Shown here piece after piece: positions 3,317-21,140 of a stretch of DNA of 64,000 nt. How positions within the stretch are numbered: the first letter of the stretch is position 1; every line of letters starts with the position of its first letter. A model generated the notes under the pieces. That model had not been told where the DNA came from. It saw nothing but the letters and a program-made list of their open reading frames with translations, and made no database searches. Origin of the DNA: Trueperaceae bacterium (GTDB taxonomy: Bacteria > Deinococcota > Deinococci > Deinococcales > Trueperaceae); NCBI GenBank assembly GCA_965215565.1, contig CBDCDZ010000004.1:4329474-4393473 (forward strand). Direction: 5' to 3'. The translations under genes and the position numbers were made by a program.

Positions 3317-3353
3317 TGCTGATTCAACCCAGGGCTGCTCTGCCGAAAAACTC

Positions 3354-3576
3354 ATGATCCCGCCAAGAGACGCTCGAAACGATCAACGAACTCCTCCCTC
3401 AGCAACCGCAAGAGAAGCTCGAGGCACTCCTATCTTGGCTTGAGCAAGAAGACGACGCTTTCAAGGCGCGGCTACGTGCTGACGTTGGCGCTGGTAAGTT
3501 TGACCAACTCATTGCTGATGTGATTGCTGAAGACGAAGCTGGAGAGACCCTAGACCTTGAAGCGTCGTGCGATTAA
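3354..3576 (+). pseudogene. Frameshifted small antitoxin-like gene
   Basis: Frame 3364-3576 reads QETLETINELL...ADVGAGKFDQLIADVIAEDEAGETLDL; ATG 3354 is 1 nt out of frame (ATGATCCCGCCAA). Confidence 0.5.
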
Positions 3577-3643
3577 GGCGTTGCTGAACTTCCCAAGCTC
3601 GAGCGCTAGGATGTCTTCGCGGTTCTCAAGCTATAATCAACCT

Positions 3644-3865
3644 ATGGAACGTATTATGATTGACCCTAATATCTGCAACGGACGTCCGGTTATTAAGGGG
3701 ACGCGCATTACGGTGCAAACTGTGCTCGAGTTTCTAGGTGCGGGCGATTCCATTGAGGACATTTTAGGCGAGTATCCGAGCCTGACACGCGAAGATATCT
3801 TGGCGAGTTTACGTTACGCCTCACGCTTGTCAGCCAACCGCTTTACGCTCGAGCGGGTTGCGTGA
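3644..3865 (+). CDS. DUF433 antitoxin (VapB45-like), leaderless
   Basis: IDPNICNGRPVIKGTRITV motif; TATAAT at 3632-3637, ATG 6 nt later. Confidence 0.9.
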   Translation: MERIMIDPNICNGRPVIKGTRITVQTVLEFLGAGDSIEDILGEYPSLTREDILASLRYASRLSANRFTLERVA

Positions 3866-4204
3866 CCGGATTTCTACTTGATGAGAACTTGCCTGCCAAA
3901 CTTCGCTTTATGCCTTCGCTACCTGTTATTCACGCACGAAATCTAGGAGAAAGTCCTAGCGACACCGAGTTGTGGGCTTATGCGCAAGCGAATGATTTAG
4001 CTGGTTATCACCAAGGACGTGGACTTCTCTGCACGCATTTTGTCTGCTAAGCCGCCGCCTAGGATTGTGCATCTGCGATTTGGCAATTTGCGACTAGCCG
4101 CTTTCCACACGCATCTAGCGCACGTTTGGCCTCGGGTTGAAACGCTGTTAGCCTCCAACAAACTCGTGAACGTCTATCTGGACCGTTTAGAAGCTGTGAC
4201 TTAG
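3862..4204 (+). pseudogene. DUF5615 PIN-like toxin (VapC45-like), frameshifted
   Basis: FLLDENLP...SDTELW in one frame, VITKDVDFS...PPPRIVHLRFGN in the next; extra base near 4003. Confidence 0.85.
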
Positions 4205-4245
4205 AAGCTCGAGCCTCTTTAAACCTAGTTTGCTAAACTAACTTT

Positions 4246-4497
4246 GCGACAACACGAAAACGCAGGTTTATCACCGATGAGGCGAGCAACCCTGTCGCGG
4301 TAATTTTATCCTTGGAAGATTATGCCCACGTTCATGCGATTTTCAAGCCCAACCAGAGCGAAGAGGATGAATTGGACCTCATGCAAAGGACCGCGAATGA
4401 TGCCGCTTTCCCGAGTGATCTAAAGCAAACCATGAAGGACTTCGAGCACGCCGATGCAGGATGGCGGGAGTCCACTGGGTGCTCGAGGTTCGCATAG
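4246..4497 (+). pseudogene. Antitoxin-like gene lacking a start codon
   Basis: Open frame KRRFITDEASNPVAVILSLEDY...MKDFEHAD; TAAACT at 4234-4239 followed 6 nt later by in-frame GCG instead of ATG/GTG. Confidence 0.45.
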
Positions 4498-4566
4498 TAG
4501 ACAAAAAGAGACGCGGATTCCGCTACTGCTGAAATTTGCGTCTTCACAACTTCTGTTCCTAGCCAA

Positions 4567-5679
4567 TCACCCAAACTGCGTCAACCCGACGCTCGGCGTC
4601 GCCCGGTCTCTCTGAATGTCAATCTGCGTCGCCGCCATCTTGAATGCTTGCGAACTCGTCGCGGCGGTCATGCCGGTGACGTAGTCGATGAGGTCATCGC
4701 GGTAGAGGTCCGCTAGGGCGTCGTCGAAAATCTGCATCCCGTCGAGTTTGGAGTCTTTAAGGGCGTCGTAAAGTTCCGCGTTGCGGTCCTCGTCGCGCAA
4801 GAGGTCTTTGATGCGCAAGGTACCCTTCATGATCTCCATCGCGGCGACGCGCCCGCCGTTCATACGGGGCAAGAGGCGCTGTGAGACGATGCCGACGAGC
4901 GAGTCGGCGAAGAGGATGCGCGCCGAGTCGCGCTCGTGCGGCGGGAAGAGTTCCATGACGCGGTTCACCGTGCGCACAGTGTCGAGCGTGTGGAGCGTGC
5001 TGAAGACCAAGTGACCCGTCTGGGCGGCTGAGATGGCGGCTGCCGCCGTCGCGTAGTCGCGAATTTCCCCGATCATGATGACCTCGGGGTCTTGGCGCAT
5101 CGCGGCGACGAGTGCCTCGCTAAAGGAGGGCGCGTCCACGCCGATTTCCCGCTGGACGATGACCGACTTTTTCGCGCGGTGCAGGTACTCGATAGGGTCT
5201 TCCACGGTGATGATCATCTTGTTATGCGAGACGTTGATCTCGTCGATGATGCGCGACAGCGTCGTGGACTTGCCCGAGCCCGTCGGACCCGTCACGAGGA
5301 TGAGCCCCTTCTCCTGGTCACGGAAGTAGTCGATGAGTTCTGGCGCTAAGTTCACCACTTGAAGCTGCGACTCGTCGCTGTTGATGACGCGCAAGACCGC
5401 GCTGACCGAGCCGCGCTGCCGGAACAAGTTGACGCGGAAGCGGCTCATGCCGGGGATGCTGTAAGCGAGGTCCGCTTGGTGCTTCTCTTGGAAAATCGCC
5501 TTTTGCCTATCGTCGCACATGATCTTGACGAACGACTCGGTCATAGCGGGCGTGAGTTGGGTTTGCCCTACGGGAACGAGTTTGCCGCCGACGCGCGCCA
5601 TCGGCGGCAAGCCGGCGTGCAGGTGAATATCCGATGCGCCCTTGGCGACGAACTGGGTGAGCATGTCGTTAAAAGTCAT
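4567..5679 (-). CDS. pilT: Type IV pilus retraction ATPase PilT/PilU
   Basis: ASDIHL, Walker A GPTGSGKSTT, EDPIEY, RQDPEVIMIGEIRD, TGHLVFSTLHT. Confidence 0.9.
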   Translation of the reverse strand: MTFNDMLTQFVAKGASDIHLHAGLPPMARVGGKLVPVGQTQLTPAMTESFVKIMCDDRQKAIFQEKHQADLAYSIPGMSRFRVNLFRQRGSVSAVLRVINSDESQLQVVNLAPELIDYFRDQEKGLILVTGPTGSGKSTTLSRIIDEINVSHNKMIITVEDPIEYLHRAKKSVIVQREIGVDAPSFSEALVAAMRQDPEVIMIGEIRDYATAAAAISAAQTGHLVFSTLHTLDTVRTVNRVMELFPPHERDSARILFADSLVGIVSQRLLPRMNGGRVAAMEIMKGTLRIKDLLRDEDRNAELYDALKDSKLDGMQIFDDALADLYRDDLIDYVTGMTAATSSQAFKMAATQIDIQRDRATPSVGLTQFG

Positions 5680-5734
5680 ATGCCCGTTATTGTAGCGGCG
5701 CGAGAGGGTGTGTGGAGCGCAAATCCTCATATTC

Positions 5735-5846
5735 TAGCAGGTATTATCTGGTCAGAAACACGCTCACTGTAGAAAATACTGCTCAGCACGCACATTATGA
5801 GATGAGGTCTGCAGCACTCCGTCTCAGTATGTTTTGGAACTATTTA
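5735..5846 (+). mobile_element. MITE-like repeat, family A copy
   Basis: TAGCAGGTATTATCTGG...TCTCAGTATGTTTTGGAACT, aligns with the other family A copies. Confidence 0.75.
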
Positions 5847-5981
5847 TAGCAAGTCCAGCGAGAACGCCCCACATAGCTTCATCTGGTCAGACGCCCCTAC
5901 GTCGCAAAGTATTGCCGAGTTGCGCACATCAGGGAATAATTTCCATGTTTGTTCGTCTCGTTAAGCTACGGAACTGCTGTA
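5847..5981 (+). mobile_element. Divergent family A-like element abutting the previous copy
   Basis: Starts TAGCAAG, contains CATCTGGTCAGA, ends GGAACTGCTGTA. Confidence 0.45.
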
Positions 5982-6011
5982 GCAGGTGCTGCAGAAGCGT
6001 TAAACTGACGC

Positions 6012-6623
6012 ATGATCGATATTACTAGAATCCTCAAGACCAAATATCCCACCTGGCCCGGTGACACCGACTTCAAGCTCAAAGACACCGCCAACATGAG
6101 AGACGGCTCGCCTGTCAACATCATGGCGATAAAAACTACGACGCACGTCGGCACGCACCTAGACGCGCCGTATCACTACACGGACGAGGGCGATAAGCTC
6201 GGCGCGGTCCCGCTAGAATTGCTCGTCGGCGACGCGCAGGTTTTACATACGCTCGCTTACGACGCGGTGCCCGCTGAAACGGTCTCGCACTTCGGTTCGC
6301 TGCCAGAGCGAATACTCTTCTTCACCGGGGAGCCCGATGTGTGGACTGACTTTCCCGAAGACTTCACCGCGCTCACGCCGGAACTCATTCACGCGCTGAG
6401 CGAACGCGGCGTCAAAGTCGTCGGCGTTGACAGCCCGAGCGTAGACAAATTCAGCAGTAAGGACTTGCCCGTCCACAAGGCGTGCGCCGAGACGGGTGTC
6501 TACATCGTCGAGGGGCTGAACTTGCAAGGGGTGGACGAAGGGCGCTATCACCTTATCTGCCTGCCGCTCAACATGCCCGACGCCGACGCTTCGCCGGTGC
6601 GGGCCGTCCTCACGAAACCGTGA
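6012..6623 (+). CDS. kynB: Cyclase family protein / kynurenine formamidase
   Basis: HVGTHLDAPYH metal motif, GVDSPSVD, DASPVRA; adjacent to kynU; leaderless (TAAACT 6001-6006). Confidence 0.85.
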   Translation: MIDITRILKTKYPTWPGDTDFKLKDTANMRDGSPVNIMAIKTTTHVGTHLDAPYHYTDEGDKLGAVPLELLVGDAQVLHTLAYDAVPAETVSHFGSLPERILFFTGEPDVWTDFPEDFTALTPELIHALSERGVKVVGVDSPSVDKFSSKDLPVHKACAETGVYIVEGLNLQGVDEGRYHLICLPLNMPDADASPVRAVLTKP

Positions 6624-6633
6624 TCTGGTTACG

Positions 6634-7815
6634 ATGAAGCGCGAAGCCTTCTTACTCCCCAAAGGCATCTACTTAGACGGCAACTCGCTCGGACCGCTTT
6701 CCTACGGCGCGCAAGCCGCTATTGAGCGGCGGCTCAAGCAGTGGCAGGTCTACGGCGTGAGCGCGTGGGAGGAGTGGTTCGCGCTCGCTGAGCGGCTCTC
6801 CCCGGCGCTCGCCAAGCTCGTCGGCGCGAAGCCGAGCGAGGTCATCGCGGCGGGCACCCTGACGGGCAACCTTCACGCGCTACTCGCCACCTTCTACCGC
6901 CCCAAAGGGCGGAGGCGCAACCTGCTCGCCACCTCACTCGACTTCCCGAGCGACCTCTACGCGCTACAAGCTTGGGCGGAGCGTGAGGGCGCGGAGCTTA
7001 AACTCGTCCCCTCGAGAAATCCCTACACCCTCCACCTAGGCGACATCCGAGACGCGCTAACTGACGACATCGCCCTCGCTGTACTGCCTACGGTCCTCTA
7101 CCGGAGCGGACAACTCCTGAACGTCGAAGAGGTCACGGCGCTCGCGAAGAAACGAGGAATCACAATAGGCTGGGACGCGGCGCACTCAATTGGTGCAGCA
7201 CCACATACTTTCCATAAGGCGGGCGCGGACTTCGCGGTGTGGTGCTCGTACAAGTACCTCAACGCGGGTCCGGGAGCGCCCGGCGGCTTGTTCGTCCACG
7301 AGAAACACCATCATCTCAAGCCAGGGCTACCCGGCTGGTGGGGAAATGACAAGGCGACGCAGTTTGAAATGAAACACGAGTTTACGCCCGCTGAGGGCGC
7401 GAGCGCGTACCAGATCAGCACGCCGAGCATCTTGGCGTTAGGGGGGCTCGAGGGCGCATTGGCGCTGTTCGAAGAGGTCGGGATTGAAGCCATCCGCCAA
7501 CGCTCTTTGGGCCTCACGGATTATCTTATTGAACTCGCCGACGAACACTTGCCCGAGATGACGCTACGAACGCCTCGCGACCACGCCGAGCGCGGAGGGC
7601 ACATCGTGTTGGAGCATCCCGACGCCAAACAGCTCAGCGCCACCTTGCGCGCGCGCGACATCATCCCCGACTACCGCGAGCCCAACCTCTTGCGCCTTGC
7701 GCCCGCTGCCCTCTACAACACCGAAGCGGAGTTGGGAGAGGTCGTTGAGGTTCTGAAAGAGCTGTTGGCGAGTGGCAGCTACAAAAAAGTTAAGGCCGAG
7801 CAGCAGGTGACTTGA
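6634..7815 (+). CDS. kynU: Kynureninase
   Basis: IYLDGNSLG, DFAVWCSYKYLNAGPG (PLP lysine), PGWWG. Confidence 0.95.
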   Translation: MKREAFLLPKGIYLDGNSLGPLSYGAQAAIERRLKQWQVYGVSAWEEWFALAERLSPALAKLVGAKPSEVIAAGTLTGNLHALLATFYRPKGRRRNLLATSLDFPSDLYALQAWAEREGAELKLVPSRNPYTLHLGDIRDALTDDIALAVLPTVLYRSGQLLNVEEVTALAKKRGITIGWDAAHSIGAAPHTFHKAGADFAVWCSYKYLNAGPGAPGGLFVHEKHHHLKPGLPGWWGNDKATQFEMKHEFTPAEGASAYQISTPSILALGGLEGALALFEEVGIEAIRQRSLGLTDYLIELADEHLPEMTLRTPRDHAERGGHIVLEHPDAKQLSATLRARDIIPDYREPNLLRLAPAALYNTEAELGEVVEVLKELLASGSYKKVKAEQQVT

Positions 7816-7949
7816 AAGCCCGCTGCTCTTGGCCCATTCACCCCGGTTGAACTAACCCAAACGCCCGACTCAAACGCTTCACGTTAAAAAACCCTCGAGT
7901 TTTAGCTCACCACCTCACCCCGGACAAATGCGCCATAATACTGGGTGTT

Positions 7950-8915
7950 ATGACCCAGCGAGGCGCGATCACCAAAGCGAGACGTTTAGCGAGCCTACCC
8001 GAACTCCTCGAGCGAAAACCGCGCACGACCACCGAACTTGCTGAACTTTTTGGCGTTCCGAGGCGTACAGTTCAGCGCGACTTAGAGACGCTGCGTGAGG
8101 AAGGCTACGAGATTGACAGCCCTGCGCGCGGCCTCTACCTCATCCCCTCCAACCCCTCGAGTCTCAACGCCGTCGAAGCGCTCGCCGTCCACGCCGCCAC
8201 CAGGCTCCTCTACCACCACGCCCCAGCACGCAACCCGCACTACCGCTCCGCTTTAGAAAAGCTCGCCTCCTTGCTACCAGAACCGGCGCGAGGCGTCGCG
8301 CTGAGCAGCGTAGAGGCGCTGGGTGAGCGCCCTCCCGACGACAGGGCGCTCGAGCTTGCCGCTCAAGCGTGGTTCGAAGGGCGCGTGCTCGGGTTCGAGT
8401 ATCTCTCGCCGAGCGGCTCGGGCAAGTGGCGCGCTAAAGCGCTAGAGATTTATATGATCGAGATCAACCGGGCCAACCTCGCCCCCTACGCCATCGGTTT
8501 CGAGCGCAGCTTTCACAAAAGGATACTCACCTGGAAGCTCTCGCGAATGCGCAACACGCGCCTACTTGGAGACACCTACACCATCCCTCAGAACTTCGAT
8601 CCGAGGGACTACTTAGAGACCGCTTGGGGTGTCATCGGCACCAGTGGCGGAGAGACCGTAGCCGTGAAGTTGCGCTTCGCACCCGAGGCCGCTCACCGCT
8701 TACGTGAAGGCGGCTACCCGAACATGAGCATCGAGCGGGAACTAGCCGACGGCGCTTTAGAGGTCTCCATCCAGGCTGGCACGAACGACGAAGGGTTCCC
8801 CTTAGAGCTTCTCCCCTGGGTGCAGAGTTGGGGTCCGCGCGTCGAGGTGCTAGAACCCGCGAACTTGCGCGAACGCTGGTTAGAGGAGGCCCGGCGCGTC
8901 GCTGGGGTATACTAG
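7950..8915 (+). CDS. HTH-WYL-WCX transcriptional regulator (YafY/PafBC-like), CRISPR-adjacent
   Basis: N-terminal wHTH (ELAELFGVPRRTVQRDL), WYL region (WKLSRM), C-terminal WGPRVEVLEPANLR. Confidence 0.9.
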   Translation: MTQRGAITKARRLASLPELLERKPRTTTELAELFGVPRRTVQRDLETLREEGYEIDSPARGLYLIPSNPSSLNAVEALAVHAATRLLYHHAPARNPHYRSALEKLASLLPEPARGVALSSVEALGERPPDDRALELAAQAWFEGRVLGFEYLSPSGSGKWRAKALEIYMIEINRANLAPYAIGFERSFHKRILTWKLSRMRNTRLLGDTYTIPQNFDPRDYLETAWGVIGTSGGETVAVKLRFAPEAAHRLREGGYPNMSIERELADGALEVSIQAGTNDEGFPLELLPWVQSWGPRVEVLEPANLRERWLEEARRVAGVY

Positions 8916-8916
8916 G

Positions 8917-9029
8917 TAGCAGGTATCATCTGGTTTGAGACGCTCCCACTTTGAAGAACACGCTCTAGCACGCACGTTCAGAGATGATATCTGCGGCACT
9001 TTGTCTCAGTATGTCGTGGAACTGCTGTA
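8917..9029 (+). mobile_element. MITE-like repeat, family A copy
   Basis: TAGCAGGTATCATCTGGTTTGAG...GGAACTGCTGTA. Confidence 0.8.
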
Positions 9030-9114
9030 GATAGCGCATGTTCGTGAGGACGTTGACAACTCATGCTCGAGACTTAGAAGGGGTAAAACGCTAGTTTTGC
9101 CGTCTGGGTCTAGT
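9030..9114 (+). promoter_or_regulatory. CRISPR array 1 leader
   Basis: AAAACGCTAGTTTTGCCGTCTGGGTCTAGT nearly identical to the sequence before array 2. Confidence 0.8.
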
Positions 9115-9691
9115 CTATTCCCCACGTGTGTGGGGATGAACCGCGAGCATCGCCAAACGCAAAGAGTACATCAAACTATTCCCCACGTGTGTGGGGATGA
9201 ACCCACTGGGCAGAGTTGCCCCGTGAGACGTTGCAACTATTCCCCACGTGTGTGGGGATGAACCGCTCGACAAGGCGCGTTCACAGTCGTTAAGAGACTA
9301 TTCCCCACGTGTGTGGGGATGAACCGAACTTAGCCGCGTCGGTCTGCTCGTAAGCGTCCTATTCCCCACGTGTGTGGGGATGAACCGTAACGAGCTGAGC
9401 GATTTACTATATTGCATTGCTATTCCCCACGTGTGTGGGGATGAACCGCTGGCTGTTTCACAGCAAACTAGGATACGCGACTATTCCCCACGTGTGTGGG
9501 GATGAACCGCGGCGTGCTGCGCCTGGACACCTCGAACGTCACTATTCCCCACGTGTGTGGGGATGAACCGAGGTTTACCTCAAGTTAGCGCAGGTTAGCG
9601 AACTATTCCCCGCGTGTGTGGGGATGAACCGTATCAGTGGACAACGCTCAGCCAATATATTCCCTATCCCCACGTGTGTGGGGATGAACCG
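9115..9691 (+). CRISPR. Type I-E CRISPR array 1: 10 repeats, 9 spacers of 32 nt
   Basis: Repeat CTATTCCCCACGTGTGTGGGGATGAACCG, 61-nt period; R2 ends in C, R9 has A>G, R10 lacks one T. Confidence 0.98.
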
Positions 9692-9774
9692 GGTCATTTC
9701 CCATATGGAATTGTCACCCTCTGGGGTATAGTAAAGAAGTGTAACACGCACGACACTCACCCAAAGGAGCAACT

Positions 9775-10119
9775 ATGTCCGAACCGACCGCCAACACCAA
9801 CTTCAGTGACACCGAACGTCGCGCCCTTATCCTCGAGGGCGCGACGGGTGAAATGAGCAAACGACTCGACGACATTCACGCTGATATTAAAGAGCTGCGT
9901 GGCAGCGCCCGCGACGACAACCGTGAGCTACGCGCTGACATCAAGACAAACGCTGAGGCGACCCAGGCGGCTTTACTCAACGTTCAAACCAACATCATTG
10001 ACGTACAAAAGAGCGTGATTAGCGTGCAGAACAGCATTAACCTAATGACGTGGCGACTGCTCGGCGGCGTGTTGCTTCTACTCATCGTCAACGGCATCAT
10101 TGACCGGGTGTTTTCATGA
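9775..10119 (+). CDS. Coiled-coil protein with C-terminal TM helix (DUF1640/XhlA-like architecture)
   Basis: AAGGAG RBS; heptad pattern; hydrophobic C-terminus WRLLGGVLLLLIVNGII. Confidence 0.75.
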   Translation: MSEPTANTNFSDTERRALILEGATGEMSKRLDDIHADIKELRGSARDDNRELRADIKTNAEATQAALLNVQTNIIDVQKSVISVQNSINLMTWRLLGGVLLLLIVNGIIDRVFS

Positions 10120-10403
10120 ACGCACCTAACTCTTCCCCCGCGTCTGCGGCTAGCGGGAGCGTCCACGCGACAGAGGTGAACCCCTTACGCATACGCGAAA
10201 AGCTCGGCTTGTCGCAGAGTCAATTTGCTGAACTACTTAGCGTGAGTAAGAAAACCTTGCAGAATTGGGAGCAGGAGGTCCGCGCCCCATCCGGTCCAGC
10301 GCTGTCACTTCTTAAACTCGTTGCCGCCGACCCGAAACACGCCGCGCGAACGTTAGGCTCCGCAGAATCCGGCTTTGCCGGTTCGTTAGGGGTGAAGCGG
10401 TGA
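10116..10403 (+). CDS. XRE-family HTH protein (HigA/NadS-like)
   Basis: IREKLGLSQSQFAELLSVSKKTLQNWEQ..R.PSGPA..LL; ATGA overlap with upstream ORF. Confidence 0.9.
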   Translation: MNAPNSSPASAASGSVHATEVNPLRIREKLGLSQSQFAELLSVSKKTLQNWEQEVRAPSGPALSLLKLVAADPKHAARTLGSAESGFAGSLGVKR

Positions 10404-10816
10404 AAGGGTTGAGGGCATTTTTAGCAGCGCTTTTGTGTGTTCTTTTGGGCGCGTGCGGTGAGGTGGACATCGACACAGGTTAGAGCATAGGTTAAGGCTG
10501 AAAGCCTCAGCATCTGAGATGCTCACCTGTGTTCAAAGGCTCTTAGCCTTCACCTGTGCAACCCACTACCGAGGAGTACCGGGCGCTGCTCACAGGTGAA
10601 TGCTGAGAGCGTCCGGCAGTCGCCGTAACCTGTGAGCGCCGCCTTATAGACGGCTACACGCTGCACGACGTGTATCAAGTGACGGCGGGTGAGCAGGTGA
10701 CGGCTAAGAGCCGAGCTGAGCTTTGCTCTAACCTGTGCGAGCAAGACCTCATCGAGCCGGATGGCGTCATCGTGGGCCTATTCCCCACGTGTGTGGGGAT
10801 GAACCGGAGAAAATGA
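10400..10816 (+). pseudogene. Lipoprotein-like gene with five in-frame stops
   Basis: GTG start overlapping HTH stop; MKGLRAFLAALLCVLLGAC lipobox; stops at 10481, 10493, 10499, 10544, 10604, then frame open to TGA 10814. Confidence 0.5.
10778..10806 (+). CRISPR. Solitary perfect array-1-type repeat
   Basis: Exact CTATTCCCCACGTGTGTGGGGATGAACCG. Confidence 0.97.
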
Positions 10817-11022
10817 TGGATGACATGAAACCGGTAACGAGCATGGCTGACGTTCCCGACTTCTCTACAGATGAGGAAGAGCAAGCGTTCTGGGCGACGC
10901 ATTACATCGGCGACGATGTGCTCGTCACTCCGCGCGAACTGTCTGACCAGCCGCTTCCTCCCCCGCGTCCACGCAGGGTTGAATCCAAGCGTATCTCGCT
11001 CACGCTCGAGCCAAGTGAATGA
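10813..11022 (+). pseudogene. CopG/BrnA-type antitoxin, C-terminally truncated
   Basis: VPDFSTDEEEQAFWATH and SKRISLTL motifs; RHH helices missing, MKYQ-like remnant just downstream. Confidence 0.7.
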
Positions 11023-11092
11023 AATATCAGCAACGCTGCTGACCTCCCATCGCCATTGACCTCATAATCTAAGGGCGGCAGAAGGCAGCTTC

Positions 11093-11680
11093 TCAAATAT
11101 CCGCTAGAATTTTCTCAGCTAACTGCTTGGCAACCTTCTCTTTCGCTTCCTCTTCTCGCCGCGCTTTGTCGTACTTCGCTGCTCTGACCTCGAGCTTCTC
11201 GCCCAATATGCGGAGGGCGCGTTCAGGTTTCATAAAGGGATTGAGCACGAAGCTGTACGTCCGCTTCCGCTGCCGGTCAATGGCTAAAATTTGATAATGT
11301 TTTGGACTTAGCAGCGCAGCGAGTTCAAAGCGTCCCATGCGCTCTGCTGCGATAATCTGCGAGTCTTTGAGCTTGTTCTCTAAGTCCCAACGGCTAAGTT
11401 CACGGTCACTACCAAATGTCGGACGCATTCCGAGGATATTCCACAAAAAGGGGATGCCGAATGATGCTAGGAAAGAGAGTCCAAGAGAGAGCGGTAAAAC
11501 ACCGACTCTCTGCCAAAATTCGCTACCCCACACGATAAGCGCAGTGCCAAGGACTGCCGTCGCAATAAACGTATACATTGCCCAGACTGGCAAGTAAGCC
11601 TCCCCTCTAATAGCAGCGTTGAACCGCTTGTGCCACGGTGCTTTGTCTATTAGTAGGTCTCTAAACAATGTATCTGACAT
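11093..11680 (-). CDS. Two-TM hypothetical protein divergent from cas3
   Basis: AGGAGG RBS before ATG 11680; two hydrophobic helices; charged helical C-terminus. Confidence 0.7.
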   Translation of the reverse strand: MSDTLFRDLLIDKAPWHKRFNAAIRGEAYLPVWAMYTFIATAVLGTALIVWGSEFWQRVGVLPLSLGLSFLASFGIPFLWNILGMRPTFGSDRELSRWDLENKLKDSQIIAAERMGRFELAALLSPKHYQILAIDRQRKRTYSFVLNPFMKPERALRILGEKLEVRAAKYDKARREEEAKEKVAKQLAEKILADI

Positions 11681-11808
11681 GCACGTCCTCCTATTGCAGA
11701 TGATAACGAAGTGCTGAACCCTTATTATCGCATATTGCGCTTGGTGAGTGAGGGGCGCGTCAGCTATTACGAGGCACAGTACGAGCGAGCGATTGCAAGA
11801 TTTTACTT

Positions 11809-11841
11809 GCGTCACCAATTGACGTTAGAGCGTGATATATC
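11809..11841 (+). promoter_or_regulatory. Palindromic operator + -10 of cas3 (GCGTCA-N5-TGACGT-N10-TATATC)
   Basis: Motif shared with the cas8e upstream region; ATG 6 nt after the -10-like hexamer. Confidence 0.6.
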
Positions 11842-11847
11842 TGTTTC

Positions 11848-14592
11848 ATGCCTAAGTTGAGCCAACGAGCACAGAGCTTCTGGGCGAAGAGCCCTAAAAA
11901 AGGTGAGCCGTTCGAGTCCCACCCCGTTATCGCTCACCTCTTGGACGTAGCCGCGAGTGCGTCCGAAATTCTGAAACTCGAGCCCGAGAAGATAACTGCT
12001 CTGTACGCCGGTGACTTCAAGCTGTGCGAAAGTGAGGCTGCCCTTTGGGTTTGCGCTCTGGCAGGGTTGCATGACCTTGGCAAAGTGAGCCCAGCGTTTC
12101 AGCAACTCTGGACTCCGGGGTTGGAGAAACTTATTTCGGTTGCTCCCGAGTTTGATTGGCATACTACCGACTCGCTTGCCCCTTCGTCCCCACCAGGCTA
12201 CGTTTCTCACAGTGTAGTCAGCCAGGTCATACTGCCTAGCTTGCTGAAAGCAAAAGGCTTTCAGGGTACGTTAGCAAAGGGCGTTGCGGACGCTGTCGGC
12301 TGTCACCACGGGTTTCGAGCAGATGGTCAAGAACTCGGTGAGGCGTGTAAAAAGAAAGAGAAGGGACGCGAGGTCTGGGACGACGCGCGTGAAGAGATAT
12401 TCAGAGCAGTATTAGAGGTCGTTGGCGTTACGGATAGCCCCGAGGTGAAAAAACTAAGCGCAGCAGGCTTTATGCGCCTTGCGGGTCTAACGAGCTTTGC
12501 AGATTGGATCGGCTCGAGCCTCTATCCCTCACTAAGCTTCGTCGGGTATGAGAATGACCTGGAAGGTTACTACGAAGAGGCGAAGGTGGCAGCGCGACAT
12601 AGGTTAGCTGAATTGGGTTGGACAAAGCGTACGCCTCTACACACGGACGCGCGACTACTGGAGGATACCTTCGCTTATCTCACTCGTGAAGAAGGCAAGC
12701 CGTTCTCGCCGCGCACGCTCCAGACAGAAGTCGAGAAGCTGTTGAGGGAGGTCTCCGCGCCAACCCTTCTACTCATCGAAGCGCCGATGGGCGAAGGTAA
12801 AACGGAGGCTGCATTCTACGCGCACCTGCGCCTGCAAACCGAACTCGGTCACAGAGGGATGTACGTGGCGCTGCCCACGATGGCAACCGGAAACGCGATG
12901 TTCAGCCGGACGGCTGAGTTCTTGAACGAGCAAGCCGAGGGACGGACGGTTCCGCTCGACTTGCAGCTTTTGCACGGGGCGACGCAGCTCAATAGTGTCT
13001 ATCAAGCGCTTCAGAGCGAAGTGCGTCCTAACTTTCCCGATGAAGAGAAGCTCGAGCACGTCCAAGCGAGAGAGTTCTTCACGCACAAGAAGCAAGCCCT
13101 TCTTTCGGAGTATGGCGTCGGCACGGTGGACCAGGCGCTACTGACCATTTTGAACATTCGGCATCAGTTCGTGAGGCTGTGGGGTCTCGGCAACCGCGTC
13201 GTCATCATCGACGAGGTTCACGCTTACGACACCTACACCTCAGAACTCGTGAATGGACTCGTGCGCTGGCTCCACGCACTCGGCTCGAGCGTCGTTTTAC
13301 TGAGCGCGACCCTCTCCGAGAAATCTCGTAACGAGTTGCTCGAGGCTTACGGCGGGGAGGCAAAAGAGACCGAAGGCTATCCGCGCATCTTCAAAGTTGC
13401 TGCTGGTGAAACCGAAGTCTTTCCGTTCGACGCCGAATCTAAGCGTAAGGTCGAGATAGCTGTCCATCACCTCGCCGCAGATTTGGACACCATCGTTCGG
13501 CTGTTGGAGGATAAGCTCGCAAAAGGTGGTTGCGCAGTCTGCATTGTCAACACGGTAAACCGGGCGCAAGAGCTTTATAAGAAGCTCGGGGGGAAAGATA
13601 CGTACCTCTTTCACGCCCGCTATCCTGCCGAAGAACGCGCTGAGATTGAGACTCATATCTTAGAGACGTTTGGCAAAGCAGCAACGAGGGAGAACGGCAA
13701 GCGCCCGCACCGCGCTATCCTTATCGCCACCCAAGTCGTAGAGCAGTCGCTCGACCTCGACTTCGACCTCATGGTCACAGACTTAGCACCAGTGGACCTC
13801 ATTATCCAACGGGCAGGGCGCATGTGGCGGCACGAGCGCCCGTCGTCAGAGCGCCCTATCTCTGAGCCACAGCTCTTCATCGCGGGCATGGAGCATGAGG
13901 GAGAGCTGCCGGAGTTGTCACGCTATTTTTGGGACAGGGTCTATCAGCCTTTTATCCTCTACAAAACCTGGGACGTGCTGCAAGGTAAAACTCAGCTCAC
14001 GCTGCCCACTGATATTGACGACCTTGTGCAGCGCGTTTATGACGGTGATAGTGAACCGCTCCAAGCGAGGCTTTCAGAAGAGGCGTTTGAGCAAGCTGAA
14101 GAAAATCAGCGCAAGTTCGTGGAGGAGCGAAAGGCTGATAAAAGCCTCGCACGTGAAGCAATCATCAGTCAGGTGAGGAAGAACGGTGAGCTTGCGCTAC
14201 GCGACCCGACCAGAGTTAGAGAAGAAGAGGACAAACCGAATGGACTGCCAGCCGTTTTTACGCGCAAAGGGCAACCCTCAGTGCTCGCCGTTCCCCTCTT
14301 TGAGCGCGGCGGTGAATACTTCTTGGATGCCGAAGCAAAAAAGCCCTATGACGCTAAAAAGCCGCTCGAGACCTATAAACGCTCCGTCCGCCTGAGCAGG
14401 CGCGGGTTTCCTCAAGCACTTGAGAAGCACAATGCGGCGCAGGGATTTGAAGAGACTTTTAAGCACTGGGAGAAGAACCCGCTTTTGCAAAACTGCGTTC
14501 CACTTGTGCTAGATACGGATGGAAGCGTTGTCGTGGGTCAAACGAGAGTAAGACTGGATAGCGTTTTAGGCGTGGTGTATGAAAGCGCCTAA
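11848..14592 (+). CDS. cas3: CRISPR helicase/nuclease Cas3
   Basis: HD domain (HLLDV, HDLGK, HHG, ADWIGS), APMGEGKT, DEVH, QRAGRMWRH. Confidence 0.97.
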   Translation: MPKLSQRAQSFWAKSPKKGEPFESHPVIAHLLDVAASASEILKLEPEKITALYAGDFKLCESEAALWVCALAGLHDLGKVSPAFQQLWTPGLEKLISVAPEFDWHTTDSLAPSSPPGYVSHSVVSQVILPSLLKAKGFQGTLAKGVADAVGCHHGFRADGQELGEACKKKEKGREVWDDAREEIFRAVLEVVGVTDSPEVKKLSAAGFMRLAGLTSFADWIGSSLYPSLSFVGYENDLEGYYEEAKVAARHRLAELGWTKRTPLHTDARLLEDTFAYLTREEGKPFSPRTLQTEVEKLLREVSAPTLLLIEAPMGEGKTEAAFYAHLRLQTELGHRGMYVALPTMATGNAMFSRTAEFLNEQAEGRTVPLDLQLLHGATQLNSVYQALQSEVRPNFPDEEKLEHVQAREFFTHKKQALLSEYGVGTVDQALLTILNIRHQFVRLWGLGNRVVIIDEVHAYDTYTSELVNGLVRWLHALGSSVVLLSATLSEKSRNELLEAYGGEAKETEGYPRIFKVAAGETEVFPFDAESKRKVEIAVHHLAADLDTIVRLLEDKLAKGGCAVCIVNTVNRAQELYKKLGGKDTYLFHARYPAEERAEIETHILETFGKAATRENGKRPHRAILIATQVVEQSLDLDFDLMVTDLAPVDLIIQRAGRMWRHERPSSERPISEPQLFIAGMEHEGELPELSRYFWDRVYQPFILYKTWDVLQGKTQLTLPTDIDDLVQRVYDGDSEPLQARLSEEAFEQAEENQRKFVEERKADKSLAREAIISQVRKNGELALRDPTRVREEEDKPNGLPAVFTRKGQPSVLAVPLFERGGEYFLDAEAKKPYDAKKPLETYKRSVRLSRRGFPQALEKHNAAQGFEETFKHWEKNPLLQNCVPLVLDTDGSVVVGQTRVRLDSVLGVVYESA

Positions 14593-14614
14593 ATGCTTAC
14601 TTGTCTATCCTCTG

Positions 14615-14647
14615 GCGTCACTAAATGACGCTTCACCATATTAAAGT
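14615..14647 (+). promoter_or_regulatory. Palindromic operator + -10 of Cascade operon (GCGTCA-N5-TGACGC-N10-TAAAGT)
   Basis: Perfect 6-bp inverted repeat and TANNNT. Confidence 0.65.
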
Positions 14648-14668
14648 GAGTTGAAGGAGGACCAAACA

Positions 14669-16285
14669 TTGGCTACGTTCAACCTCATTACAAAACCTTG
14701 TATTCCTGTACGAGTAAATGGAAAACTCGAGCACTACTCCCTCGAACAAACGCTTTTGGACGCGAAAGACATTGAGCGCATAGAGGACGCCTCTCCTCTC
14801 GTTGTAGTCGCGCTGCACCGGCTTCTGCTCGCCATTCTCTACCGCGCCCTCAACCCTGACAGCACTGAAGAGATTGGGGAGTGGCTCGAGGACGGCTTTC
14901 CAGAGGAGGGCATACGCACCTACTTGGAGAAGTGGAAACCTCACTTCGATTTGTTTGATGCGAAACGCCCTTTTTATCAGGTAGCAGACCTCGAGCAAGC
15001 TACCTTCGGCAAGCCGATTGAGCCGAAAGCCTGGACCGAACTCGCGCCCGAGGTGCGTGACGGCGGTCAGGGGGCGTCGCTCTTCAACCATCTTAACGAA
15101 GTTGCAGAGCCGATTCCTGCCGCCACAGCGTTTCACCAACTGCTCGTCCGTCAGACCTTTGCGCTAGGCGGGCTTAGCAGAACTTTCGTAGATTCGGCGA
15201 AGAATGCCCCTTCCCCAAACGCAGTCTTTCTCATACCACATGGGCAGAATTTACACGAAACACTCTGTTATTGTCTCGACCCTAACAACTACACACACCA
15301 TGAGGACGACGTGCCATTCTGGGAGCGCAATACAGCTTATGATGTCGCTTACCTAGAAAGGACAAGAGAAGAGCCGGTTTTAGGCTGTGTTCAAGTGTAT
15401 ACCTGGATGAGCCGCTCAGTGAAGCTCATCCCGCTCGAGACGGACGATGGTCCTTATGTTGAGGAAATCTACTTTGCCTCCGGCATCGCGCCGAAGTTCG
15501 AAATCGCTCAGTATTTCGACCCGATGGTTGGAAAGAGAGTTAAGTCCGGTAAAACCGAGAATAGCCTTACCTTTATTCGCTTCGATGGAAATAAGCAATT
15601 CTGGCGAGACTTCCAATCGCTATTCGCTGAACAGCAAACAGGTATAGCACCACGTGTAATTAGCCTATCTGCCCGCCTAGCATCTGAGTTCAACCGTAAT
15701 GTGAATCTCGGCGTTTACGGCATCAATAACAAGCAGGCAAAAGTAAACTTTGCGCGACAAGAAAACCACATTCTTCCCGAGGCTGTTAGCGCTGATAGGA
15801 CAGAAGATGTTTATGCCACGCTTGCAAACTCGCTCACGCAAACGGACAAGCTGGGGTATTCGCTAAGAAAAGCAATCTTTGAAATACATATTCACCTTGA
15901 CCCCGAGCTTCGGATTAAAGATAAGAAGAAGCGAGAGGAATTCTGGCGAAAGGTCAACGCTCCACCTCCTCCTAAAGAGAATCCTACGATTACTCGGTTG
16001 AGAACGGCAGTGAATACATCCTACGGAGTTAGTTTTTATTGGTCTACACTGAGCCGTCTCTTTCCAGAGTTATTGGACCAGCTCACCGCTGACTTCAAAC
16101 CCAAAGAAGTCCAACGTTATTGGGCGCAGAGACTCCTAGATGCTTCTGACCGCGCCTGGACGCTCGCCCGCGCCGCCGCTGGCGACGACGCCTACGCCCT
16201 CCGCGCCATCTACTCTGCCGAAGGCATCCTACGCGCCGCGCAGAGCGAGTTTCGCACTCTCACTACATCTCAGGAGGCAGCATGA
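14669..16285 (+). CDS. cas8e: Type I-E Cas8e (Cse1/CasA)
   Basis: FNLITKPCIPV, ALHRLLLAIL, FDLFD..RPFYQ; AGGAGG before TTG 14669. Confidence 0.92.
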   Translation: MATFNLITKPCIPVRVNGKLEHYSLEQTLLDAKDIERIEDASPLVVVALHRLLLAILYRALNPDSTEEIGEWLEDGFPEEGIRTYLEKWKPHFDLFDAKRPFYQVADLEQATFGKPIEPKAWTELAPEVRDGGQGASLFNHLNEVAEPIPAATAFHQLLVRQTFALGGLSRTFVDSAKNAPSPNAVFLIPHGQNLHETLCYCLDPNNYTHHEDDVPFWERNTAYDVAYLERTREEPVLGCVQVYTWMSRSVKLIPLETDDGPYVEEIYFASGIAPKFEIAQYFDPMVGKRVKSGKTENSLTFIRFDGNKQFWRDFQSLFAEQQTGIAPRVISLSARLASEFNRNVNLGVYGINNKQAKVNFARQENHILPEAVSADRTEDVYATLANSLTQTDKLGYSLRKAIFEIHIHLDPELRIKDKKKREEFWRKVNAPPPPKENPTITRLRTAVNTSYGVSFYWSTLSRLFPELLDQLTADFKPKEVQRYWAQRLLDASDRAWTLARAAAGDDAYALRAIYSAEGILRAAQSEFRTLTTSQEAA

Positions 16286-16826
16286 GCGAGAAGACGGACA
16301 GGTTCATCTCTTACTTATGGAAGCTAGACCGCAAAGCCTTCGCCGAGCTGCGGCGCAGCCTCAGCGACGAACCGGGGCGCTCTATCCCTGCGATTCCTTA
16401 CGTAGAGCGCTTCACCCTCGGTGAGCGCCGCTGGAATCAGCAGATGTACTACTTAGTGGCGGGGCTCTTTTGCCTTGTGGAGCGCCCGCTCGAGCAGAGT
16501 GCAACACCGCCCCCACCGCGCCAACAGAGCTTCGGCAGCAGCGTTGGAAGGCTCTACGTTCTTAAAGAGAAAAGCGCCAGCACCGAACGCCGCTTTATCC
16601 GGCTGCTCGACGCCGACGCGGGACAGCTCGCCGAGCGGCTTCGCCAGATGGTGTCTTTGCTGCGCTCCGAAGGCGTCGAAGTCGGTTGGTCGCGGCTTTT
16701 GAACGACCTGCTTTACTGGCACGCCGACGACTGCAACATCCAGCACCGCTGGGCTCGAGAGTTTTACATGCAAGAAGCCAAGAGCGAAAGAGCATCCGAA
16801 ACGGAAGAAGTGACAGGAGGAACCGC

Positions 16827-16830
<4 letters not shown>
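16282..16830 (+). CDS. cse2: Type I-E Cas11 (Cse2/CasB)
   Basis: AELRRSL, ERRFIRLLDAD, LL.DLL.W, WAREFY. Confidence 0.92.
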
Positions 16831-17965
<1,135 letters not shown>

Positions 17966-17969
<4 letters not shown>

Positions 17970-18598
17970 CGCACACGCTGTTACTTTGCTTGGCGGGTCC
18001 GCTCCAGTCGTGGGGCACGAAGTCCCGCTTCGACGAACGCGACACCGAACTCGAGCCCTCGAAAAGCGGCGTAATCGGGCTCTTATGTGCGGCGCTCGGC
18101 GTTGATCGGCACGAGGCGGAACCCGTTCTAAAGCTTGCCGAGATGCCGATGGGCGTTCGCGTTGACCGCGAGGGGGTGTTGCAGCGCGACTATCACACTG
18201 CTCAGAGAATTGACTATAGCGGTAGGGTGCGAGATACAGTCGTCTCGCACCGCTACTTCCTTTCGGACGCCGTTTTTCTCGTAGGTTTTGAGAGTGAGGA
18301 TAGAAGTTTTCTCGCGGAGGTACAAGCGGCTTTGAAGAATCCACACTGGTCTCTTAGCCTCGGGCGCAAGTCTTTTGTGCCGTCACGCCCGATTTGGTTG
18401 TCCGACGGTCTTGTTCAGAAGAGCTTGGACGATGCCTTATGTCAGTATCCAAATCTCACGAACGAAGAGCCAGTGCGCTTAGTGCTCGAGAGTTCACGCG
18501 GCTCACTACGAACAGACCAGCCGCTCTCGAGCTTTCATGAGCGCCGTTTCGGTACGCGCTATGTTACGAGTGAGCCGTGGAGCCACCCATGTACTTGA
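17966..18598 (+). CDS. cas5e: Type I-E Cas5 (CasD)
   Basis: LAGPLQSWG...PSKSGVIGLLCAALG, LGRKS. Confidence 0.95.
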
Positions 18599-19314
18599 GC
18601 AAACTCGTCTTAAACCCTCGTGCTCATCAAGTACGCCGCGATCTCACCAACCCCTACCAGACCCACGCCAGCCTCTGCTGGGCGTTTCGCAAACCTGAAG
18701 CGCTCTCAGAAGCCGAAACTGGAAGCTGGGAACGCGGCAAAACCGTGTATCCCTTTTTGTGGCGCTTGGAGCCGCCCCAGCCTCGCGCTGCACCAATCCT
18801 CTTAGTTCAGAGCGAAGTGGAACCTCAGTGGGACGTTTTCGCCGAGCGACACCCAAACTACTTTAGCCGAAAGGTCAAGGTAGGTAAGCTTCCCCTCGAG
18901 CACCTTGTACAGGGTCAAACCCTGCGCTTCCGTCTCAAAGCTAACCCGACCGTCACCAAGCGGCACGATGACCAACCCGATAAGCAGAAGCGCGTCGGGC
19001 TCTACAAGATGGAGGATTTACTCGGCTACCGGAGTGATAACGGCGAATGGATACTTGGCTGGATTGAGCGGCAGAGCGACTTTGGCACAGAGCAGCGCGG
19101 CTTCGTGGTCGGCGCACAGGACGTTATTTTGCGCAACACCGAGCGCTTGCGTTTTCATAAACATGAAGGAGGTCATCCCATCACCTTGCAGTCCGCGCTC
19201 TTCGACGGCTACTTGAAGATTACCGACGTAGACCTATTCAAAGAGACGCTCGCTAAGGGCGTCGGCAAAGCCAAAGGGCTCGGCTTCGGTCTCCTCTCGG
19301 TTGCGAGAGCCTGA
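18589..19314 (+). CDS. cas6e: Type I-E Cas6e (Cse3/CasE)
   Basis: MYLSKLVLN, FRLKANP, C-terminal GVGKAKGLGFGLL. Confidence 0.95.
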   Translation: MYLSKLVLNPRAHQVRRDLTNPYQTHASLCWAFRKPEALSEAETGSWERGKTVYPFLWRLEPPQPRAAPILLVQSEVEPQWDVFAERHPNYFSRKVKVGKLPLEHLVQGQTLRFRLKANPTVTKRHDDQPDKQKRVGLYKMEDLLGYRSDNGEWILGWIERQSDFGTEQRGFVVGAQDVILRNTERLRFHKHEGGHPITLQSALFDGYLKITDVDLFKETLAKGVGKAKGLGFGLLSVARA

Positions 19315-20297
19315 TGCCCTCCTTACGCAACCTCCGCGAACTCCCCAAATTCCGCGACGGTCTCTCGTACCTCTACATCGAGCGCGGACGCATCGAGCAA
19401 GACGCTAAAGCCATCGCCTGGTACGGCGAAGAGGGCAAGGTGAGCGTACCCGCCGCCGCGCTGGGCGTCTTGATGCTCGGTCCCGGCACCAGCATCACCC
19501 ACGAAGCCGTGAAAGCCTTGGCGGATAACGGCTGCTTCATCAACTGGGTTGGCGAGGACAGCGTGCGCTTTTACGCGGGCGGCACAGGCGAGACGCGCAG
19601 CAGCGCCAACCTCATGCGCCAAGCGGAGTACTGGGCGGATAGTGGCAAACACCTTCAGGTAGTGCGGCGCATGTATGAGATGCGTTTTGAGGGTGGGTTA
19701 GAACCGGGGCTCACCCTCGAGCAGATTCGCGGCAAAGAGGGCGTGCGGGTGCGCACCATCTACGCCCAGATGAGTAAGGAGACCGGCGTCCCCTGGCACG
19801 GGCGCAGCTACAAACGCGGTGCTTGGGGCAGCGCTGACCCTATCAACCGCGCCCTCTCCGCCGGAGCCGCTTGCGTCTACGGCGTTTGCCACGCCGCTAT
19901 CGTTTCAGCAGGCTACAGCCCCGCACTTGGCTTTATCCACACAGGCAAGCAACTCTCCTTCGTCTACGACATCGCCGACCTCTACAAGATGGAGGTGCTC
20001 GTACCCGCCGCCTTTAGACTCGTCGCCGAGTCAGACGAGCACGTAGAGAGCCGCGTTCGGCATCACCTTAGAGACGCCATGCGCGAGGCGCGGATGTTGG
20101 AGCGCGTCGTGAGCGACCTGCACAGCCTTTTCAGCAGCGACGCCGAGAGTAATGAACGCTTTGCCGAGGACGGCGCAGCACCGGGTGAGCTGTGGGACCC
20201 GAGCGGCAACGTGGAAGGAGGGGTGAGCTATGGTGGTGATGACGCTCGAGAAAGTACCGACGAGCCTACGCGGAGAACTGAGCCGCTGGATGGTTGA
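19314..20297 (+). CDS. cas1: Type I-E Cas1
   Basis: LMLGPGTSITHEA, RGKEGVRVR, LGFIHTG..LSFVYDIADLYK. Confidence 0.97.
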   Translation: MPSLRNLRELPKFRDGLSYLYIERGRIEQDAKAIAWYGEEGKVSVPAAALGVLMLGPGTSITHEAVKALADNGCFINWVGEDSVRFYAGGTGETRSSANLMRQAEYWADSGKHLQVVRRMYEMRFEGGLEPGLTLEQIRGKEGVRVRTIYAQMSKETGVPWHGRSYKRGAWGSADPINRALSAGAACVYGVCHAAIVSAGYSPALGFIHTGKQLSFVYDIADLYKMEVLVPAAFRLVAESDEHVESRVRHHLRDAMREARMLERVVSDLHSLFSSDAESNERFAEDGAAPGELWDPSGNVEGGVSYGGDDARESTDEPTRRTEPLDG

Positions 20298-20583
20298 AGT
20301 TTCGACAGGCGTCTACGTCGGCAAACTGAGCGCTTTGGTGCGCGACCTCTTGTGGGAAAAGGTCACGAAGAGCAAACGCACCGGGCGCTGTTGTCAGGTC
20401 TACCGCACCAACACCGAACAAGGGTTTGCCATTCGCATGGACGGCGACTCGGAAAGGAGTGTCGTTGACCTGGACGGGTTATACTTAGTGGCAGTGAAAA
20501 ACGCGGCGTGGGAAAAGATGTTTGTTGAACCTGCCGAGGACCATGACAGACCCGATGGAGACATAGAGGGGTCAAAACGCTAG
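20230..20583 (+). CDS. cas2: Type I-E Cas2
   Basis: MVVMTLEKVPTSLRGELSRWMVEVSTGVYVG, EQGF, DLDGL. Confidence 0.95.
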   Translation: MVVMTLEKVPTSLRGELSRWMVEVSTGVYVGKLSALVRDLLWEKVTKSKRTGRCCQVYRTNTEQGFAIRMDGDSERSVVDLDGLYLVAVKNAAWEKMFVEPAEDHDRPDGDIEGSKR

Positions 20584-20603: not shown

Positions 20604-20992
20604 CTATTCCCCACAGGCGTGGGGATGAACCGAACCAATGGTGCGAATAGGCTCAACTATTCCCCACAGGCGTGGGGATGAACCGACACCGTGTGCGAAG
20701 AAACGGTGCATGATTTCCTATTCCCCACAGGCGTGGGGATGAACCGTATAGACACTCGGACCCAAGCGGCGAAACATGCCCTATTCCCCACAGGCGTGGG
20801 GATGAACCGAGATGGATACATCCAACTGGCACATTCAGGACCTATTCCCCACAGGCGTGGGGATGAACCGCCTCTCTCTTCACCTTCAGTTTTTTGGCTA
20901 GCCTATTCCCCACAGGCGTGGGGATGAACCGTAGAACTCGTCGATTTGCCCGATGTCCTTGCCCTATTCCCCACAGGCGTGGGGATGAACCG
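20604..20992 (+). CRISPR. Type I-E CRISPR array 2: 7 repeats, 6 spacers (24, 32, 34, 32, 32, 32 nt)
   Basis: Repeat CTATTCCCCACAGGCGTGGGGATGAACCG. Confidence 0.98.
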
Positions 20993-21130: not shown

Positions 21131-21140
21131 AGGCTTTAAG

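Follow-up and report, generated by a model that had tools for sequence, protein, structure and literature searches.

A 1086-nt gene-bearing giant spacer in a type I-E CRISPR array of a Trueperaceae bacterium with a protospacer-like right end

The CRISPR Locus and Its Giant Spacer

The window, by which we mean the whole stretch of 64,000 nt that was analyzed, originates from a Trueperaceae bacterium (GCA_965215565.1, contig CBDCDZ010000004.1; genome G000 in the following) and harbors a CRISPR locus whose features are compiled in Table 1. The full cas gene set, 29-nt repeats with a hairpin, 32-nt spacers, and a leader identify it as a type I-E locus, whereby cas1e and cas2e are intact. The motif of the array 1 leader is also present in other leaders of the order, and both repeat and leader resemble those of records named Meiothermus. 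In array 1, repeats 1–10 are spaced 60–61 nt apart; repeat 9 carries one substitution and repeat 10 a 1-nt deletion (one T missing). At the array's trailer end, an interval of 1086 nt separates repeat 10 from repeat 11, which by its length does not correspond to a canonical 32-nt Cas1-Cas2 spacer. This interval is referred to as giant spacer or insert. According to a crude repeat finder, arrays 1 and 2 are the sole arrays in the genome, and the insert is single-copy apart from a dispersed palindromic repeat within it.

Table 1. Features of the CRISPR locus in the window and giant spacers of related genomes.
Feature	Position	Strand	Remarks
WYL/WCX transcriptional regulator, upstream of array 1	7950..8915	+	Pfam WYL, WCX, HTH_11; orthologue in G001
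Array 1 leader	9027..9114	+	near-identical to array 2 leader and G001 leader
Type I-E array 1, repeats 1–10	9115..9691	+	spacers: eight of 32 nt, one of 31 nt
Giant spacer (G000)	9692..10777	+	1086 nt, 56% GC, single copy; AAG before last 32 nt
ORF1, 114 aa	9775..10119	+	coiled coil and C-terminal hydrophobic stretch; strong Shine-Dalgarno 9763–9769
HTH_3 protein, 95 aa, antitoxin-like (HigA-2/NadS/MqsA class)	10116..10403	+	Pfam HTH_3 1.5e-9; phrog_2104 1.8e-19
Lipoprotein gene remnant	10400..10777	+	GTG start, lipobox Cys at codon 19; truncated by repeat 11 after codon 38, nested element set aside
Nested REP/REPIN-like palindromic element	10474..10737		264 nt; 13-nt perfect inverted ends; fold z = -7.45
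AAG, type I-E PAM	10743..10745	+	native coding sequence
Protospacer-sized 32 nt between PAM and repeat 11	10746..10777	+	inferred former spacer/protospacer
Repeat 11	10778..10806	+	perfect
Orphan CopG/BrnA-type antitoxin fragment	10813..11022	+	begins 6 nt past repeat 11; Pfam CopG_antitoxin 0.004, below cut-off
Complete type I-E operon cas3, cse1, cse2, cas7, cas5, cas6e, cas1e, cas2e	11848..20583	+
Array 2	20604..20992	+	7 repeats of variant sequence, no giant spacer
G001 giant spacer, orthologous site			970 nt; complete BrnT-BrnA pair and 3' end of HU-like gene; no AAG at 32 or 33
G020 giant spacer			1062 nt; Xre-RES; AAG before last 33 nt
G054 giant spacer			882 nt; DUF4258-like/DUF2283 pair; AAG before last 33 nt
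G005 type I-D arrays L211, L212	C1:4220213-4223754 and about 4243060-4243600
G005 type I-D giant spacers, trailer ends of the two arrays			1191, 547, 678, 503 nt; three in tandem

The initial annotation, which was made from the sequence alone, had pointed out this interval behind ten repeats and had named a misassembly as one finding that would speak against it. The left junction and repeat 11 are bridged with zero differences by the Logan contigs X1 #4 (9542–10518) and X1 #5 (10489–11166). Contigs of run X2 likewise cover the insert without differences, at a depth of ~22–24 that is flat across the insert and its flanks. Since runs X1 and X2 may be the source sample, this evidence is independent of the assembler but not of the sample. 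These data confirm that the giant spacer is real and no misassembly.

Several observations were made in the surroundings. Between the WYL/WCX gene and the leader lies a 110-bp MITE/REP-like element (8917–9026) with at least ~90 chromosomal matches at E<1e-13, which is missing from the orthologous G001 site. Downstream of repeat 11, the region 10807–11040 holds the antitoxin fragment without a toxin gene or promoter. Paralogues of this fragment were found and the G001 version has a longer 3' part; it is likely that the fragment is internally deleted. A near-identical antitoxin, followed by a repeat 133 nt further on, is present on X4 contig 29, and X2 contig 2 (1370 nt) opens with a repeat ~1.1 kb before a HigBA region; both contigs point to additional giant spacers in other strains. 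Divergent from cas3, the minus strand encodes a protein with hydrophobic segments (11093–11680), which has no match in Pfam, PHROG, or NCBIfam and shares 74% DNA identity with its G001 counterpart. The region of array 2 (20604–21130) includes spacers that are 24 and 34 nt long and closes with a terminator-like hairpin beside a tRNA-Ala gene, in front of which G001 has ~7.5 kb of extra DNA. Elsewhere in G000, contig C3 contains the same 1050-aa ORF twice and is perhaps a collapsed or doubled circle.

Gene Content of the Insert

The insert carries ORF1, the HTH_3 gene, and the lipoprotein gene remnant, which overlap by ATGA or GTGA, in agreement with the annotated translational coupling of three ORFs. 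ORF1 belongs to a small family with four homologues at 88–95% and one, P0006, at 56%. No Pfam or NCBIfam family was obtained over the cut-off and no toxin family matched, PHROG included. The atlas matches of ORF1 are mostly unnamed, except for one XhlA cluster at 0.91, so that the protein is weakly XhlA-like. The second ORF had been annotated as HigA-like, and its antitoxin-like character is substantiated by Pfam and phrog_2104. It is 53% identical to an HTH protein encoded behind an ORF that was judged by eye to be RelE/HigB-like (C4:1477396-1478003). However, no recognizable toxin gene is located upstream of the HTH gene in the insert. ORF1 and the HTH gene thus present a coupled two-gene operon with an antitoxin-like HTH protein but without a partner of a known toxin family. 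As no toxin is recognizable, addiction fails to explain the retention of this particular insert, and with its orphan antitoxin-like genes it may be neutral.

The third gene had been regarded as a decayed lipoprotein gene. It is a remnant indeed, but not merely a decayed one, as repeat 11 truncates it and the nested palindromic element splits it. The element belongs to a host family, whose 20-nt motif matches the chromosome 37 times, often in 45-nt tandems. Its 264 nt are a multiple of three, and its removal leaves an open frame of 38 codons that runs into repeat 11. Thus, the right end of the insert is a cut through a gene. The element is likely to have entered the cut lipoprotein gene after capture.

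A sigma-70 scan of 9692–9775 called no promoter, in conflict with the promoter-like region of the initial annotation; there is a -10-like TATAGT at 9727, with a -35-like hexamer only 10 nt away. No plus-strand terminator was called between repeats 10 and 11. The earlier statement that neither a transposase nor a convincing target duplication is visible was borne out. Pfam, PHROG, and NCBIfam searches detected no transposase or integrase in the insert and no integrase among the 20 ORFs scanned from 677 to 20583. The insert ends showed neither terminal inverted repeats nor a target duplication in the 25 longest (of 53) inverted pairs and the 20 largest (of 46) direct repeat families. All inverted arms found in the insert lie within 10474–10737.

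The Right End of the Insert Follows a PAM and a 32-nt Ruler

The last 32 nt of the insert are exactly abutted by an AAG, the type I-E PAM. The by-chance expectation for this is ~1.5% per position, which is the share of AAG among the insert positions. These 32 nt carry on the lipoprotein reading frame and therefore represent donor DNA. Two other origins of this arrangement were dismissed. An unrelated old spacer as the source of the last 32 nt is contradicted here by the frame continuity and elsewhere by the homology between G054 and G005 (see below). That the AAG is part of the palindromic element is contradicted by its other copies in the family, of which none (0/36) is followed by such a sequence. 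According to the available text of PMC9699676, the E. coli type I-E prespacer comprises 33 nt and is cut inside the AAG, so that its first base is the G. By this rule, AAG, 32 nt, and a repeat correspond to a protospacer in its native context that is joined to the repeat following the matching spacer. The arrangement of 32 donor-contiguous nt, a native PAM before them, and a whole repeat behind them is that of a recombination product. Since the right end is set by a PAM and a 32-nt ruler, it was defined by the CRISPR machinery.

Giant Spacers in Related Genomes

The array 1 repeat is present in 13 of 128 genomes of the family. Arrays were examined in 11 of these 13 (G094 has a single match), and type I-E giant spacers were found in four of the 11, namely G000, G001, G020, and G054. 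The type I-E array of G005 has none. An order-wide repeat pattern missed repeat 11 and returned mainly leaders, and was left out of the counts. In G020 and G054 the AAG precedes the last 33 nt, although a length of 33 nt did not occur among the 33 spacers of G020 that were examined, and in the G001 insert AAG is missing at both positions. Neither recombination nor capture by Cas1-Cas2 accounts for the +33 offsets or for the exception of G001. The end of the G001 insert, within the 3' part of the HU-like gene, lacks an AAG and seems to carry an imperfect duplication of 15 nt (L016:8150-8216). The G020 insert recurs in four JGI contigs, with both junctions in three of them and a different neighboring spacer in two; it thus outlasts its neighbors.

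In G005, giant spacers are located in type I-D arrays instead. Their cargo comprises the toxin–antitoxin (TA) module of G054 (82% identity), a GIY-YIG-like gene, a gene for a secreted protein, HicAB, and two ORFs of no assigned function. Behind the terminal repeat lies another antitoxin-like ORF. The type I-D arrays of G054, G055, and G009 contain no giant spacer, and an initially suspected one in G054 turned out to be a normal array. With GTN, which we take to be the type I-D motif, two of the four G005 inserts fit at 34–35 nt, which is not above chance and gives no clear PAM signal. The TA module that G054 and G005 have in common has different ends in each genome. The GIY-YIG-like gene is truncated at the repeat in G054 and runs on in G005, which marks the G054 end as a cut through a longer donor.

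All eight giant spacers of the family (four type I-E, four type I-D) start exactly at a whole repeat, and in several family and GTDB cases (see below) the array continues normally on both sides. The weight that the initial annotation gave to TA modules finds a counterpart in these relatives, as five of the eight contain a recognizable TA pair; this is a raw count without size-matched control, and since CRISPR loci also sit in TA-rich regions, it does not establish an enrichment.

The initial annotation had also proposed an element that integrates at repeats, or a module whose TA-like expression is tied to CRISPR processing. In a maintained function of this kind, Cas6e would excise a gene-bearing RNA, or a dedicated element would target repeats. 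Both repeats keep their hairpin, with no plus-strand terminator called between them, and the three tandem gene-bearing spacers of G005, some of them trimmed within a few bases of stop codons, would also fit. However, the cargo occurs in both orientations, being antisense in G001, in G020, and in three of the G005 inserts, genes are truncated where the inserts end, and one TA module occurs with differing ends. In addition, there is no integrase and no match of seed plus PAM. We therefore regard a maintained function as very improbable. The integrating element in particular finds no support, given the lack of an integrase or transposase, the two whole repeats, and the differing cargoes of the relatives.

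Similar Junctions in GTDB Genomes and Viral Contigs

GTDB genomes were scanned for AA[G/C], 32 nt, and a type I-E repeat in succession, whereby AAC served as an internal control consisting of a single triplet. Among the matches listed, 88 are distinct and represent 78 loci. Ordinary short spacers accounted for 43 of the 88, which were dropped (39 with AAC, mostly the letters of the previous repeat at 30-nt spacers). Eleven listed matches have an upstream repeat 346–3736 nt away, ten of them with AAG and one with AAC (p = 0.015 at an expected share of 0.55). The remaining 34 have no upstream repeat within 4 kb and also show an excess (26 AAG, 8 AAC). All 11 inserts with an upstream repeat begin exactly at a whole repeat. 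By eye from the ORF lists, they consist mostly of phage or plasmid DNA, often cut mid-gene; TA pairs occur in two of them (a HipA module and HigBA), and no transposase was seen in these lists or in the three ORFs searched against Pfam. Three cases (L109, L133, and L144) stem from isolates or a complete genome, in which the insert is present once. In Nitrospira, L144 and L275 (G344 and G718) show the same AAG, 32 nt, and repeat junction in a large phage-type gene, whereby G718 lacks the upstream type I-E array and has another CRISPR system in its place.

These cases bear on whether the junctions are assembly chimeras, or the AAG a coincidence beside an orphan repeat. In short-read graphs, a 33-nt identity between spacer and protospacer can join an array to donor DNA, and an AAG is expected in ~1.5% at one given position. 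Yet the present insert is bridged by contigs at flat depth, the genome contains neither a second copy nor a flank of a donor, and the same architecture is found in the three cases just named and in several G020 assemblies, so that we hold both explanations to be extremely improbable.

Among viral contigs, AAG is located at -35 in 19 of 46 repeats without a normal unit before them, against a background of 2.5% (p about 2e-18, computed with n = 47). Many of these repeats are solitary, and they stem mostly from metagenomic contigs. Solitary perfect type I-E repeats with AAG and 32 nt before them were noted in phage contigs at L074, L080, L082, L084, L088, L091, L094, and L098; only L098 is from an isolate, a prophage that has HicAB just downstream. 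Intact close relatives of phages with solitary repeats were searched for, and none was close. With the exception of L098, the viral junctions could be assembly chimeras. They are also a possible origin of solitary repeat units.

Donor Searches and the Left End

No donor of the insert was found in G000, G001, G002, G005, and G020, nor by means of ORF1 in the 127 other genomes of the family, nor in JGI metagenomes. The insert is likely a 1086-nt piece of mobile DNA. No remaining spacer matches the insert ends.

The left end could be assessed for another giant spacer, L160, which adjoins the leader of its array. Its closest phage, L232, shares 1493 nt with it at 92% identity, and there an AAG directly precedes the first base of the insert. 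Three less similar phages read AGG at this position. The right end of L160 lies outside the region common with the donors, and L160, the sole two-ended case, derives from a low-coverage short-read MAG. For L109, the homologues at the left end read AGC, AGG, or ATC, at only 74–81% identity. At the left ends of L144 and G020, homologous DNA is too distant for a PAM reading, and L133, L149, L127, L174, L123, and the G001 insert gave no usable one.

Two further explanations have to be weighed against these ends. The initial annotation had suggested that Cas1-Cas2 captured an oversized fragment. For this, an under-trimmed prespacer would have been integrated by one complex at the downstream PAM, which makes the leader-side joint, and by a second one at the upstream PAM, or by repair. 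Such a capture predicts the same right end of AAG and 32 nt as well as an AAG at the left end, and it agrees with the two whole repeats, the intact cas1e and cas2e, and the leader-adjacent position of L160. Moreover, RecC was not found in G000, and in E. coli RecBCD and RecJ trim prespacers, as stated in the available text of PMC9699676. Against it, the junctions of PAM, 32 nt, and solitary repeat in phage genomes are not predicted. Two integrases would have to share one repeat, for which we know of no description. Comparable inserts are also present in type I-D arrays and among Enterobacterales, a group equipped with RecBCD. Thus, the part of the suggestion that stands is that CRISPR machinery set the right end, by PAM and 32-nt ruler; recombination of spacers with their targets explains this end at least as well, and capture by Cas1-Cas2 itself appears unlikely to us.

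It could also be that only one junction was formed. Repeat 10 would then be the old terminal repeat of the array, and an element was fused to an array remnant by one spacer–protospacer crossover, the left end being set by a deletion. This would be in line with the mutated repeats 9 and 10 next to the perfect repeat 11, with the AAG excess among listed matches without an upstream repeat within 4 kb, and with the one right junction in differing left contexts in the two Nitrospira genomes. However, the exact start at a whole repeat in 8/8 family and 11/11 GTDB cases, the continuation of several arrays on both sides, and the PAM at the left end of L160 speak against a single junction, and we consider it quite unlikely.

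A Possible Route of Capture

The insert is one example of a recurring class that works like a product of spacer–protospacer recombination. In our assessment, it is moderately likely that it was captured through two colinear spacers, whereby a spacer-repeat-spacer unit was replaced with the donor DNA between the two protospacers. The observations behind this reading are the right end of PAM and 32 nt, the mid-gene cut, the recurrence with varied cargo, and the one two-ended case, L160. In such a scenario, two array spacers that match same-strand sites ~1.1 kb apart on one invader would recombine with their targets. According to the available text of PMC9699676, primed protospacers upstream of the priming site lie on its strand. 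Primed adaptation would thereby yield a colinear pair in which the newer spacer comes from upstream of the older one, as is established for E. coli type I-E and presumed here. The exchange at both 33-bp homologies might be simultaneous, or integration at one spacer might be followed by deletion through the other. A homology of 33 bp is short for RecA. Neither ddrB (DdrB-type annealing) nor recC was found in G000. The product would consist of a repeat, the DNA from the first protospacer up to the PAM and the second protospacer, and a repeat. Both guides would be lost in the exchange, so that the insert would not be self-targeted, and the captured piece would persist at the trailer end. The reciprocal exchange would leave a junction of AAG, 32 nt, and repeat in the phage, and junctions of this form are those seen in the viral contigs.

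A TA-rich cargo would most simply reflect selection. To judge from the relatives, captures that bear TA modules might be favored because they resist loss or deletion between repeats, or because they keep a cell alive when it destroys an addictive donor. Protection of a cell that loses an addictive donor is known as the concept of anti-addiction.

As a tentative generalization, CRISPR arrays may be general gene-capture sites, in which primed spacer pairs serve as homology arms that write 0.3–4 kb of invader DNA between protospacers into the array; selection would keep the TA pieces, and the reciprocal exchange would leave phages with solitary repeats, from which RNA anti-CRISPRs may have arisen. 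In the usual view, arrays store only snippets of ~30 nt, and long intervals are blamed on insertion sequences. If the generalization holds, arrays would bank antidotes of the elements they destroy and would grow integron-like tails such as the three tandem units of G005. In this concrete manner a cell could survive the clearing of an addictive plasmid or phage, and the solitary repeats of phages would have a possible origin. If PAM-defined kilobase captures are routine, CRISPR immunity would also allow genes to be gained at a fixed position in the chromosome. With its PAM, 32 nt, and repeat, and a further PAM preceding the left end, the signature allows the idea to be tested by census and genetic assay.

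Comparison With Known Systems

Kilobase captures in arrays bounded by PAMs were not found described in the literature searched, which left most subscription journals outside; likewise, the available text of PMC8047081, PMC4869251, and PMC10651486 describes neither PAM-defined long spacers nor a PAM before solitary repeats. Long spacers of E. coli, Pseudomonas aeruginosa, and Streptococcus thermophilus mostly match transposases or integrase cores (PMC4524480, available part, table S4). They resemble the present case as kilobase intervals between repeats; however, no transposase, insertion sequence (IS) end, or target duplication was found here, and the PAM geometry is unexpected for an IS. Foreign genes within an array are also known from prophage phiAP1.1 in the type II-A system of S. 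pyogenes, where, according to the available part of the report, the complete prophage integrates by means of an attP that matches over 8 bp, whereby a repeat is split (bioRxiv 10.1101/2020.10.09.333658). In contrast, both repeats are whole here, no integrase is present, and the ends lie at protospacer positions within genes.

As far as the available text of PMC9458426, PMC8501985, and bioRxiv 10.1101/2023.03.10.532045 goes, CreTA and CreR share with the present locus an extra repeat between array and cas3 and TA-like genes, whereas repeat 11 is perfect instead of degenerate and the cargo is protein-coding and differs between genomes. A search for CreTA/CreR guides or self-targeting within 8900–21500 (18 guides, 11-nt seed, 6 PAMs) gave 0 matches, so no guide to a promoter was found. 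Integron cassette arrays are tandem gene-bearing units between repeats and are rich in TA pairs. Giant spacers such as the tandem units of G005 are alike in outcome, but no integrase was found, fixed cassette ends are absent, genes are truncated where the inserts end, and there is no sign of excision or shuffling. Thus, the feature does not classify as an IS, a prophage at an att site, CreTA, or an integron cassette.

There is also a likeness to the recombination between phages and CRISPR loci known from transduction studies (Varble et al. 2019; Watson et al. 2018; both as given in the available text of PMC8616872), in which a spacer likewise provides the homology to the target that joins an array to invader DNA. 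The known system moves CRISPR loci by transduction. Here, by contrast, ~1 kb of invader-type genes became fixed between two whole repeats of a type I-E array, likely via two spacers, and the class to which this insert belongs recurs across phyla, with TA cargo.
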